DNA of 37,939 nucleotides from Hyphomicrobiaceae bacterium (GTDB taxonomy: Bacteria > Pseudomonadota > Alphaproteobacteria > Rhizobiales > JAKIUO01). The stretch is from assembly GCA_021647535.1 (NCBI GenBank), contig JAKIUO010000002.1, positions 1-37,939 on the forward strand. The letters run 5' to 3'. The position numbers and the translations under genes are program-made. Positions within the stretch are counted from its first letter, which is position 1, and each line of letters starts with the position of its first letter. Shown here in pieces: positions 5,648-28,980 of the stretch. The notes under the pieces were generated by a model. That model did not search any database. It was not told the origin of the DNA and saw only the letters and a list, made by a program, of their open reading frames with translations.

Positions 5648-5817
5648 TCAATACTCTCCCTGAAATCCACTTGCCCTGTTCCCCCCAGAACACAGCTTAA
5701 ATTTTAACATATAATTTCTTCTGATGGGCTCACAAATGATTACTGATTAAGTAAATAATTAGCGATCCCCTCAAACATATGGGTTCATCTCCGCCAACTT
5801 CCAGCCTGCTAATCATT

Positions 5818-5854
5818 ATTCCAACCGCCCTAAATATTGCCCCATTACACCGGA
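5818..5854. repeat. Family-B element, orphan degenerate left-end fragment (B4)
   Basis: attccaaccgccctaaatattgccccattacaccgga matches the left end of 28677-28713 at 33 of 37 positions. Confidence 0.7.
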
Positions 5855-5934
5855 ATGGCCTCACCTTATCTCTAAATTATTTTCTGATGTGACCAGATTA
5901 TGGTTCTGACACGAGAAAAGATTCATGATATATT

Positions 5935-6199
5935 ATACCAACCCACAAAACTATTGACCTATATCACCGCAAGGAACAGGTTTGTCAGGGAGACGCTTGT
6001 TGTGCGGTGGTACTGACCCATAAACAACGAGCTTTGAAGCTGACACGCCTGTTCCTCCGGCCCTTTGGCTGGGGCATAGTGGCCCATCTGACTGGCACAC
6101 TGTTCTTGCAAGATACCAGTATCGAGCTGCGCCCAGTGTACCAGCCATATGAGCCACTATGATCCCATGATATAGGTCAATAGTTTTGTGGGGTGGTAT
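5935..6199. mobile_element. Family-B MITE-like element, variant copy B1 (265 bp, 32-bp TIRs)
   Basis: The TIRs are ataccaacccacaaaactattgacctatatca (5935-5966) and its reverse complement (6168-6199), with 1 mismatch. The right-hand ~90 nt of the core are close to 28860-28948: ggcccatctg...gcaagataccagtatc.agctgcgc...accagccatatgagcc.ctatgatccca. Confidence 0.8.
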
Positions 6200-6220
6200 T
6201 ATGTATCCAAGGAGGAAAAC

Positions 6221-7237
6221 ATGTCTGGCAAGAAGTTAAAGAAACTCTACTGCGCTCTGGCTGAAACCTATTTGAGACACCTCGTGGTCAGTCTCTTGCT
6301 GTTGGTCCCTGGCTTATTTTATGCTTTTGTTGCGACGGCAGAAAAGGCGATTTCCAAACCTTTGGAGACGAGGAGTGTCGCCGATACCATCGTTGGGCAC
6401 CCGCTGGAAGCACCGGTCAACAGACGCCCGGTCTCTGAAAAATTCTGGTGGAGCGATGACTGGTATCTGCGTGGCAAACTCATTGTGCCGACCAATCATG
6501 AAGTGATTGAGCGCGCCACAAGCTATATCAATCCTGCTGATGGCACCGAAATTCCAGCAATCATCTATCGCCCAAAGGGCAAAGGCAAATATCCTGCTAT
6601 TCTGTTCCAGCATGGACGACGTGGGCTGGACGAGATGGTGCAACGTCTGCCCCGCAGGCTGGCGGCAAGGGGCTTTGTTGTCCTTGCTCCCAATGTCTAT
6701 GACGCCCGCTTTATCGAAAAATTCCCTATGGAGCACAAGCCCGAAACCGAAGGCGATACAGCCGCCGGGATTGAATTTTTGCTCAAGCAACCCGATATTT
6801 CGACGAGCAAAATCTGTCTCTATTCCCATACGCGTGGCGGTTATTATACATTGAAAGCGGCGGTTGATTTCAAGCATCAGCACAAGCATGTCAGCTGCTA
6901 TGCGTCCAGCTATCCCCATTGGCAAAATCCCAATGCCGTCGAGCCGGCGCAGGTTTATCGCTATGCACCAGAGGCCGACCGGCTGACCATCCCGGCAATG
7001 ATTTTTATTGGCGAATATGAACAATATCAGCGCCGCCGCTCGATTGAAACGGCAGTTAAATTCATGAAACAGGCGGGCCGTGACATCAAGCTGGTGATCT
7101 ATCCAGGGGTTGGCCGTGGCTTTGATTTTCGCCCGCCAAGCATACGTACTTTTGCCGATGATCTAGCCACCAAAGACCAGATCATCCGCCTCGACAGGTT
7201 TTTTCGCCAGCACCTGTCCCAATGGCAAAAAAAATAA
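6221..7237 (+). CDS. dienelactone-hydrolase-like alpha/beta hydrolase with N-terminal membrane anchor/signal
   Basis: I moved the start to ATG 6221, preceded by AAGGAGG at 6209-6215. The earlier part of the ORF lies inside repeat B1. The protein shows the DLH-like pattern YPAILFQHGRRGL...GFVVLAPNVY...YSHTRGG. Confidence 0.7.
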   Translation: MSGKKLKKLYCALAETYLRHLVVSLLLLVPGLFYAFVATAEKAISKPLETRSVADTIVGHPLEAPVNRRPVSEKFWWSDDWYLRGKLIVPTNHEVIERATSYINPADGTEIPAIIYRPKGKGKYPAILFQHGRRGLDEMVQRLPRRLAARGFVVLAPNVYDARFIEKFPMEHKPETEGDTAAGIEFLLKQPDISTSKICLYSHTRGGYYTLKAAVDFKHQHKHVSCYASSYPHWQNPNAVEPAQVYRYAPEADRLTIPAMIFIGEYEQYQRRRSIETAVKFMKQAGRDIKLVIYPGVGRGFDFRPPSIRTFADDLATKDQIIRLDRFFRQHLSQWQKK

Positions 7238-7253
7238 AACCGGTCCTCATACC

Positions 7254-7312
7254 ATACCAACCGCCCTTAATATTGACCCATTGCATGGGATCATATTAAG
7301 GGCGGTTGGTAT
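7254..7312. repeat. Family-B collapsed hairpin copy (B3), likely also a terminator for the hydrolase gene
   Basis: The sequence is ataccaaccgcccttaatattgacccattgcatgggatcatattaagggcggttggtat. An 18-bp perfect stem (ataccaaccgcccttaat/attaagggcggttggtat) encloses a 23-nt loop. It lies 17 nt after the stop at 7237. Confidence 0.75.
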
Positions 7313-11360: not shown

Positions 11361-11570
11361 ACCCCAGGGCAATTCAATTCTTGCGCAACTCGCTTCGCGA
11401 AAGGGCTATCGCCCATACCCATTCGGGGAAAGCCTTCCCCGAACCCCTTCCATTTTATTTTAAAGATCAAAAAGGGGTGGGTTTGGGAGGGCTCCTCTCA
11501 AGCGGGTGTGGGCGGCAGCCCGCTTGCGAAGCAAAGCTTTCGAGAATTAAATTGCCCTAAGTACCCCCCA
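11361..11570. repeat. Family-A palindromic intergenic mosaic element, copy A2 (about 45-bp imperfect TIRs)
   Basis: The left arm (11361-11402, accccagggcaattcaattcttgcgcaactcgcttcgcgaa) is an imperfect reverse complement of the right arm (11523-11569, cttgcgaagcaaagctttcgagaattaaattgccctaagtacccccc). The same module occurs at 815-856 in A1. Confidence 0.8.
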
Positions 11571-28676: not shown

Positions 28677-28980
28677 ATACCAACCGCCCTTAATATTGAC
28701 CCATTGCACCGGAGCGATTTTTCCCAGCAGGGCTGGAGCACGAGGCGACGTGGTACTGGTACCATTAGCCGAGTGATCCGGTGCTGCTGGGAAAAAGCAC
28801 CCGGCCCTTATGCGCTCAAACAGCGCCAGAGATAGCGCGGCTTTGATGGGTGGGACATAGCGGCCCATCTGGCGGGCATTTTGCGTTTGCAAGATACCAG
28901 TATCAAGCTGCGCACAATCTACCAGCCATATGAGCCGCTATGATCCCATGCAATGGGTCAATATTAAGGGCGGTTGGTAT
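28677..28980. mobile_element. Family-B MITE-like element, full-length copy B2 (304 bp, perfect 32-bp TIRs)
   Basis: ataccaaccgcccttaatattgacccattgca (28677-28708) is the exact reverse complement of 28949-28980. An internal 13-bp stem pairs tttttcccagcag (28718-28730) with ctgctgggaaaaa (28784-28796). No ORF is present. Confidence 0.85.

Follow-up and report, generated by a model that had tools for sequence, protein, structure and literature searches.

An IS630-type miniature transposable element with a covarying internal fold beside a hydrolase gene of a Hyphomicrobiaceae bacterium

When the two ends of an intergenic repeat differ from copy to copy and stay complementary within each copy, does the pairing reflect a selected fold, or the recognition of the ends by a transposase? 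The question is raised by B1, a repeat at 5936..6198 on the forward strand of the window, by which we mean the whole 37,939-nt stretch of DNA analysed here: contig JAKIUO010000002.1 (C210 in our numbering) of the Hyphomicrobiaceae bacterium assembly GCA_021647535.1 (hereafter G000; 2.97 Mb in 302 contigs). A sequence-only reading, made from B1 and a second copy, B2, had noticed compensatory differences in both the ends and an internal stem, and had taken them as the signature of a selected RNA or single-stranded DNA fold rather than of simple transposase-binding terminal inverted repeats (TIRs). Our analysis leads to an answer that combines transposition with folding. B1 is a 263-bp non-autonomous transposon, a non-coding MITE (miniature inverted-repeat transposable element), and we put at about 0.7 the probability that it is an IS630-type MITE, moved in trans, whose internal fold has been kept by selection.

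B1 reads TACCA...TGGTA, scores 263.2 bits against our covariance model R1 (model positions 1-265) and was aligned with 21 other full-length copies in alignment A2. The triplet TTA stands immediately to its left (5933..5935) and again to its right (6199..6201), as the two copies of a target-site duplication. The copy itself was thus correctly recognized in the sequence-only reading; its borders, given there as 5935-6199, are properly 5936-6198, because the outer A and T belong to the duplicated TTA. An inverted-repeat search places the left TIR at 5936..5966 and, in agreement with the fold, the right TIR at 6168..6198; they form the 5' and 3' arms of a closing helix, P1. Between them lie three hairpins of the same strand. 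The left internal hairpin, P2 (5968..6059), appears in both RNA and single-stranded DNA folds, includes the stem 5972-5980 / 6048-6056 and ends in the conserved apex GGTAC-NN-GTACC. It is followed by a short junction hairpin, GCCC-loop-GGC/T (6060..6069), which is seen in the fold and in alignments A2 and A4 and is the place at which B2 and three other copies carry extra insertions. The right internal hairpin, P3 (6070..6167), has conserved internal loops and a conserved apex (CTTGCAAGATAC..GTATCGAG). As an observation apart, the P2 apex (..TGGTAC-NN-GTACCA.., window 6010-6022, A2 columns 73-92) contains the same five letters as the element's tips, set tip to tip; with so short a word the likeness may be chance.

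B2, the second full-length copy in the window (28678..28979, forward strand), is 302 bp long, scores 277.3 bits with R1, is flanked by TCA and TAA and carries an extra hairpin inside the junction loop. The details on which the proposal of compensatory change had been built were reproduced. By inverted-repeat search the ends of B1 (5935-5966 / 6168-6199) are complementary with one mismatch and those of B2 (28677-28708 / 28949-28980) with none over 32 nt; in pairwise alignment the two variable blocks differ between the copies while the blocks between them are common to both; the 9-bp stem of B1 in P2 is present and a different, 13-bp stem occupies the homologous place in B2; and the right-hand parts are 84% identical across 117 nt.

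A larger set of copies was obtained from G000 and from five other genomes of the same genus (G001-G005; Hyphomicrobiales metagenome-assembled genomes, MAGs). R1 was built from 22 copies, and a match was defined as at least 185 bits over the whole model. The family was found in all five of the other genomes and in none of 35 sampled genomes from other families of the order. The six genomes together hold 26 full-length matches of 261-321 bp (seven in G004, six each in G000 and G003, four in G002, two in G001 and one in G005), and G000 contains, besides the two copies of the window, further full-length copies, truncated copies, solo ends and 57-bp hairpins made of ends only. A pattern scan of contigs representing one genome per species found 14 loci, every one in a MAG whose title is Hyphomicrobiales bacterium, Alphaproteobacteria bacterium or simply bacterium. 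Alignment A2 comprises 22 full-length copies (six from G000, two from G001, four from G002 and five each from G003 and G004); it leaves out G003:C1, G004:C184, the G005 copy, one duplicate locus and every copy that is truncated or has an internal deletion, and it includes two orthologous pairs, so that its rows are not all independent. The 22 copies examined are all intergenic. With at least 14 versions of end positions 6-16 among 22 full-length copies, the family does not consist of two clonal subfamilies. The sole full-length copy of G005 (locus L006, 1376-1645; G005:C82) departs further, combining the usual interior with tips that read GGACGCC... in place of TACCA.... The model scores about 288 bits on the forward against about 116 bits on the reverse strand, and the interior is therefore no plain palindrome. 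Rfam returned no match over the window at the gathering score and, between 5900 and 6230 with E values up to 10, only microRNA-precursor and small nucleolar RNA models, every one of them well short of its cut-off. The literature searched yielded no account of this family.

Evidence for mobility comes from the flanks. When TACCA...TGGTA is taken as the element, the 3-bp flanks are identical in 21 of 30 full-length copies (12 TTA, 4 TAA, 4 TCA and 1 TGA), a number never reached in 10,000 shuffles of the flanks (mean 8.7, maximum 18). Filled and empty sites can be compared directly at two places. In G002 a copy sits between TAA repeats directly 5' of the ribosome-binding site (RBS) of a hydrolase gene, and the corresponding sequence of G003 is uninterrupted, with one extra T; in G005 the copy with aberrant tips occupies a CTAG site whose flanks abut in G001 and G002, and for this variant a degenerate TA duplication is possible. 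For B1 itself, one contig of run X4 joins 5930 to 6197, skipping 266 positions, with 6 ambiguous letters and a shorter side of only 21; it offers weak evidence of a possible B1-free allele with a single TTA. Reading the flanks as a 2-bp TA or AT duplication was tried and discarded, since it fails for left flanks TAA, TCA and TGA and for the X4 joint. The window also contains a derivative that consists of the two ends only, a 57-bp hairpin found by inverted-repeat search at 7255..7311, 17 nt past the stop codon of the hydrolase gene that follows B1. This hairpin is missing from one X4 contig (joint 7254->7322, side 74), and its sister copies on C234 and C246 are flanked by TGA/TGA and TAA/TAA.

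Which enzyme might move such an element? When metagenomes were scanned for the commonest end pattern, 27 loci were obtained; four of them run from the end into a transposase gene instead of the MITE interior. Elements of IS630 type with the same tips, 1160-1181 bp long, were found at two metagenome loci and at four loci of G001 and G003. The complete metagenome elements (L086 and L096, about 1180 bp) have two overlapping open reading frames (ORFs) separated by an A7 run; these match DDE_3 (PF13358; E 5.1e-23 and 1.8e-18) and, above cut-offs, the helix-turn-helix (HTH) families HTH_33, HTH_32, HTH_29, HTH_28 and HTH_23. By this domain content the predicted partner is an insertion sequence (IS) of the IS630 family. 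G000 holds only IS fragments, at the ends of contigs C202, C207, C299 and C95. The similarity between MITE and IS is limited to the terminal 24-39 nt, with nothing common beyond; the transposase reading frame runs into the adjoining IS end, and it is this end that both MITE ends resemble. DDE_3 was detected in three of the six genus genomes and gave no match in G002 (98% complete), G005 (97%) or G004 (88%), all with MITE copies, though absence from such MAGs is unproven. Shared ends and co-occurrence suggest that an IS630-type transposase mobilizes the MITE. TIRs, target duplications, filled and empty sites, small size, multiple copies and ends held in common with an autonomous element are all found here, as in other MITEs.

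Several searches for a partner led elsewhere. A partner of IS5 type had been suspected at first because of the 3-bp TWA duplication, and IS4/IS5-type candidates were set aside when the PF01609 and PF13359 matches in the genome and the genus proved to have no TACCA ends nearby. Searching G000 by end motif yielded only MITEs, solo ends and chance matches, and an IS matching the tips of the G005 copy was not found. A separate observation concerns positions 1-509 of C202 in G000 (locus L102), an internally deleted IS630-type copy with one end of GCTCGCGAAA type and the other of B2 type (GCCGCCCTTAA); either two IS lineages have recombined in this copy, or a repeat has given rise to a chimera in the assembly.

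The IS copies also explain most of what had seemed remarkable about the TIRs. Contrary to the view that their compensated differences speak against simple transposase binding, the ends are transposase ends: the same terminal nucleotides occur on autonomous IS630-family elements. IS ends vary by lineage at positions 6-16 and about 25-29, the same positions that vary among MITE copies. The C202 fragment ends in the B2 type, with 28 of 29 nt (96.6%) identical to the B2 end, the C207 fragment carries an end block close to the variable block of B1's left TIR, and the IS copies of G003 and G001 have the end type seen in a MITE subtype on C138. The two TIRs of a MITE co-vary because both copy one IS end, for which base pairing is not required, and P1 alone is weak evidence for a fold. 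This tracking of IS ends leaves P1 not fully explained. In the two pairs counted, the left and right ends of an IS match each other at no more than 19-20 of the first 24 nt and diverge thereafter, whereas the MITE ends are 95.9% paired over 30 positions (helix 1, 22 copies), with double changes at 18 of the 30 pairs; and the G005 copy has a closing stem of 31-33 bp that differs in sequence even at the tips and encloses a homologous interior.

The case for a selected fold rests mainly on the interior, which has no counterpart in the IS. The predicted RNA fold of B1 has a free energy of -141.1 kcal/mol against -79.4 +/- 5.1 for shuffled sequences (z -12.1; none of 200 shuffles as good), and that of B2 reaches -176.3 kcal/mol (z -12.9; again no shuffle as good). 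Both follow one plan, in which P1 closes P2, the junction hairpin and P3. RNAalifold predicted 87 pairs from A2, and at least one double change occurs in 46 of these, so that the pairing-preserving change proposed from two copies holds in 22. In this structure 95.4% of 1910 cells pair, compared with 81.1 +/- 0.5% when partners are shuffled (reached in none of 500 trials) and 32-40% when partners are slid by 1-3 columns. Double-change pairs likewise exceed the shuffled expectation (46 against 29.8 +/- 2.3), as does the covariation score (0.41 against 0.14). The P2 stems (helices 3 and 4) contribute double changes at 16 of 18 pairs and the P3 stems (helices 7 and 8) at 11 of 22, with none in the conserved apical stems; most of the signal lies in helices 3, 4 and 8 of the two internal hairpins, where 18 of 20 pairs are double-changed. 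The covariation of the stems also argues that B1 has no coding capacity.

Relatives in metagenomes lend independent support. Four metagenome copies of 67-69% G+C have the same ends, junction motifs and three-helix plan, while P3, whose pairing is thus compensated once more, and both apical stems are replaced by different complementary sequences; in a combined MAFFT alignment that made no use of structure, 44 of 68 pairs are double-changed. Loops and junctions are more conserved than stems; this holds for CACCG, which follows the left end, for CCGGCCC-loop-GGGTGGGGC, for both apices and for CCCATG, which precedes the right end. Several internal loops of P3 are unpaired in nearly all 22 copies. 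The greater conservation of loops and the stability of the unpaired P3 positions point to selection on pairing together with sequence-specific recognition, not to a mere likening of arms. Comparison of the copies suggests that base pairing of the internal helices has been kept by selection while the stem sequences turned over.

Resident copies also change slowly. Comparison of flanks identified three copies at orthologous sites in G002 and G003, and whole-locus alignments gave their identities. In the first pair the element is 98.1% identical, against 80% and 76% at third codon positions of the neighbouring genes and 94% and 86% in the spacers; in the third pair the figures are 97.7% for the element, 74% and 91% for third codon positions and 82% and 94% for the spacers. 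The second pair has an element identity of 95.5% (95.1% when aligned alone, which leaves the figures of the other two pairs unchanged) against 64% and 60% at third codon positions, its spacer of only 4 nt being uninformative. In divergence the element thus resembles first and second codon positions, which are 91-99% identical; relative to synonymous divergence its deficit is 5- to 10-fold. High identity ends before the neighbouring 100-nt windows, which makes a recent exchange of the region unlikely. These alignments point to purifying selection on resident copies.

We propose that a transposase of the IS630 family (DDE_3) would move this MITE of about 265 bp and low copy number in trans, recognizing ends of about 30 bp, inserting at TNA and duplicating 3 bp. 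Both MITE ends would be copies of the IS end that overlaps the C-terminus of the transposase; several IS lineages with different end blocks would coexist in the genus, and the difference between the B1 and B2 TIRs would be mainly a switch from one lineage's end type to another. Between the ends would lie a module unrelated to the IS, which as a single strand may fold into two hairpins and a junction hairpin closed by the paired ends, and copies fixed at orthologous sites would then evolve as slowly as constrained codon positions. Selection, on this proposal, probably acts on the folded single strand.

Several observations weigh against this proposal. The statistics of covariation take no account of relatedness, with two orthologous pairs in A2, and the structure was scored on the alignment from which it came, an advantage that the slid controls did not have. 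The fold does not single out one molecule: the forward strand (-141 kcal/mol, z -12.1), the reverse strand (-148 kcal/mol, z -12.9) and single-stranded DNA (-75 kcal/mol, z -10.9) fold alike. An excess of G-U pairs over A-C mismatches on the top strand, 80 to 39 in 22 copies, holds whichever way the neighbouring gene runs, and shrinks to 53 against 39 once two conserved columns, which supply 27 of the 80, are set aside. Of three 57-bp end-only derivatives in G000, which lack P2 and P3, two have target duplications; insertion can therefore do without the internal hairpins. The IS copies' own flanks are identical in only two of six cases. Conservation in place was measured at three loci of one species pair. 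By consensus scan no promoter or terminator pattern stands out in the region, and none lies inside B1. Nor do the copies show a preferred setting: the downstream gene runs in the same direction in 12 cases and the opposite in 8, the upstream gene 8 and 8, and the neighbours are housekeeping genes of unrelated classes, among them those for an epimerase, a GNAT protein, a ROK kinase, RF-2, HflX, a sulfate permease and a histidine kinase.

Downstream of B1 lies the gene for an alpha/beta hydrolase of the dienelactone hydrolase family (6221..7237, forward strand; PF01738, E 7.3e-14), with orthologues in four congeners. As had been noticed from the sequence, B1 adjoins its start, ending 11 nt 5' of the GGAGG that precedes the ATG at 6221. 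A putative promoter-like site, CTGACA-17-TATATT with a TG, is found by consensus scan at 5906..5934 (forward strand; 10 of 12 matches), and B1 is inserted at its end, so that 266 bp now separate the site from the hydrolase RBS; sites of this kind are no more numerous in the region than in its shuffles. When the alignment was inspected for boxes like those of sigma-70 or sigma-54, the only matches had the wrong spacing. As separate observations, the right junction of B1 (tip, TTA and T; 6194-6202) resembles an extended -10, TG-n-TATTAT, without a -35, and the B2 junction reads TG-n-TATAAT, in each case by consensus resemblance only.

Copies of different subfamilies lie just 5' of the orthologous hydrolase genes of G000 and G002 (L010 on G002:C54), at 11 and 0 nt from the RBS; since the distances and upstream contexts differ, the two insertions are independent. 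The hydrolase gene has no element upstream in G001, G003 and G005. Upstream of it, G001, G002, G003 and G005 are syntenic (L052-L054), with a helix-hairpin-helix repeat gene ending about 45 nt before, and in G000 this region is replaced by unrelated sequence with B1 and a degenerate, truncated solo left end (5815..5854, forward strand), which comprises the TIR and the CACCGGA junction and is 88% identical to the left end of B2 over 40 nt. Many copies of the family stand in short spacers between co-directional genes and are therefore probably transcribed by read-through, in either orientation.

The position of B1 invites the reading that it is a cis-regulatory leader, riboswitch-like or an attenuator, of the hydrolase gene: 22 nt separate the right end of B1 from the ATG, B1 stands between the promoter-like site and the RBS, and an independent copy of another subfamily has come to lie directly before the RBS of the G002 orthologue. 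We regard this as very improbable, because the distribution of copies contradicts it; elsewhere copies have unrelated genes as neighbours, lie in either orientation and are found at the 3' ends of genes as well, and three of the orthologues do without the element. A more serious challenge to a selected fold is that the arms of a quasi-palindrome may be kept alike by template switching or repair in hairpins or cruciforms, with the paired ends merely copying one IS end. The whole element is built of inverted repeats, as single-stranded DNA it folds with z -10.9, sporadic G-U and A-C mismatches affect similar numbers of columns on the two strands, the end blocks track IS lineages, and the P2 apex is complementary up to its 2-nt centre in 20 of 22 copies, which an RNA loop does not need. 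Such correction would not, however, slow substitution, and the element is several-fold slower than adjacent spacers and third codon positions. It would also leave loops and junctions drifting, the opposite of their being more conserved than the stems, and it sits poorly with specific P3 internal loops and mismatches that stay unpaired in nearly all copies, with uncompensated single changes held in orthologous pairs, and with GC-rich relatives that keep the architecture with normal apical loops of 4-6 nt. We therefore think it improbable that arm correction accounts for B1 without any selection on the fold.

If the fold of an IS630-type MITE has been kept by selection, as we prefer to think, what might it do? 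The role to which we lean, with modest confidence, is that of a self-contained structure in read-through transcripts, whichever their orientation, on which expression of host genes would come to depend. That the fold acts as a trans-acting or protein-binding RNA of its own seems to us a weaker possibility, a part played as single-stranded DNA or cruciform in mobilization or replication somewhat weaker again, and the absence of any selected role, the arms being corrected by mutation, unlikely. A bolder proposal takes the interior of about 200 nt for a structured nucleic acid with a function, in the simplest case a non-coding RNA or an RNA or DNA module that binds protein, for which the IS630-type ends, changed at least once, would be a vehicle, and which the host would retain under purifying selection as strong as that on protein-coding positions; we hold this to be speculative. 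Still more doubtful is its full form, in which the interior has a host function and each resident copy is a working gene, carried on IS630-type ends and held by purifying selection. Much of the evidence would suit it: an identity of 95-98% between orthologous copies beside 60-91% at third codon positions in the flanks, conserved loops and junctions, a junction hairpin loop that is mostly UUCG with the variants UCCG and GGAA, P2 and P3 dispensable for insertion, and indifference to the orientation and class of neighbouring genes, as for independent genes. So would low copy number with many old lineages (26 copies, 6 genomes, at least 14 end types), intact copies in the three genomes that lack a DDE_3 match, and a module that in G005 outlived a complete change of its end sequence. 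Set against it are the likeness of the two strands' folds, the small base of three loci in one species pair, the lack of a recognizable promoter or terminator inside the element, both by scan and on reading A2, and the lack of an Rfam match at the gathering score, permissive matches being only to hairpin-shaped microRNA models. There is nonetheless a real chance that a mobile functional RNA or DNA module is at hand; if the interior is functional, the family would be a mobile multi-copy RNA gene family and not merely a selfish repeat.

Other repeats were met in passing, and the G000 assembly is rich in small ones. At least two further short non-coding families share the outer 14 nt or so (TACCAACCGCCC...) and have unrelated interiors; in G000 they were located at C265:~6800-7036, C2:16416-16680, C220, C66 and C284:21310-21456. 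From these common ends, several MITE families are probably served by the same transposase group. At C2:16338-16445 a right end and a left end stand tail to tail with only TTA between them, which represents either two adjacent insertions in one triplet or an end-to-end junction. The window has two occurrences (665-905 and 11362-11461) of a different repeat family, whose units contain ...TTCGCGAA... and GGGCAATTCAATTCT..., and which interrupts two copies of the B1/B2 family elsewhere in G000 (C93:8100-8300 and C188:335-380).

Three features make the family unusually informative: its partner has been identified; its end-only derivatives separate what insertion needs from the internal fold; and its copies at orthologous sites change several-fold less than synonymous positions and the spacers beside them. 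An old question, whether hairpin-rich repeats persist by tolerance, by self-help or by use to the host, is thereby made testable. It also carries a warning for scans that seek structured RNAs: covariation between paired transposon ends can result simply from one IS end having been copied into both.

How does this family compare with systems already described? MITEs are known for IS630-family insertion sequences, for example RUP of Streptococcus pneumoniae and the Correia elements of Neisseria, and the classical IS630 family duplicates TA. The partner described here resembles that family in its DDE_3 domain, N-terminal HTH domains and short TIRs, in having two ORFs with a slippery A7 run, and in its length, about 1.18 kb, and differs in that a 3-bp TNA is duplicated and not TA; no report of TNA duplication by bacterial IS630 members surfaced in the literature searched. 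REPINs are not known to make target duplications, and their mobilization relies on a single-copy transposase of HUH (Y1) type, RAYT. With REPINs our family shares short intergenic hairpin repeats, stems complementary between variants, low to moderate copy number and long-lived lineages; it differs in its target duplications, 30-bp TIRs and DDE partner, a RAYT gene not having been searched for. The Stowaway MITEs of plants are likewise non-autonomous, served by a transposase of the same superfamily (Tc1/mariner), similar to their partners only in the TIRs and able to fold back stably, but are eukaryotic, duplicate TA and reach high copy number; we know of no report of covarying internal helices or of conservation in place for them. 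Within the IS630-Tc1-mariner group, TAA duplications have been reported for Fot elements of the related pogo superfamily (PMC7386202).

The closest described case documented is bcr1 of the Bacillus cereus group, which is a transcribed MITE of about 155 bp with 5-bp direct repeats, in which compensatory changes maintain a cruciform-like structure at the RNA level (PMC3184786). The family of B1 is new; with structured bacterial MITEs already known, its class is not, though the form seen here is unusually well preserved. Our family and bcr1 are alike as small non-coding mobile repeats with direct repeats, a non-conserved genomic distribution and compensatory pairing, and unlike in that bcr1 has an unrelated sequence, a host of another phylum, direct repeats of 5 bp and known transcription. 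The present family, known here from sequence alone, is set apart from bcr1 by its three-helix fold, 3-bp TNA duplications, IS630-family partner and conservation at orthologous sites.

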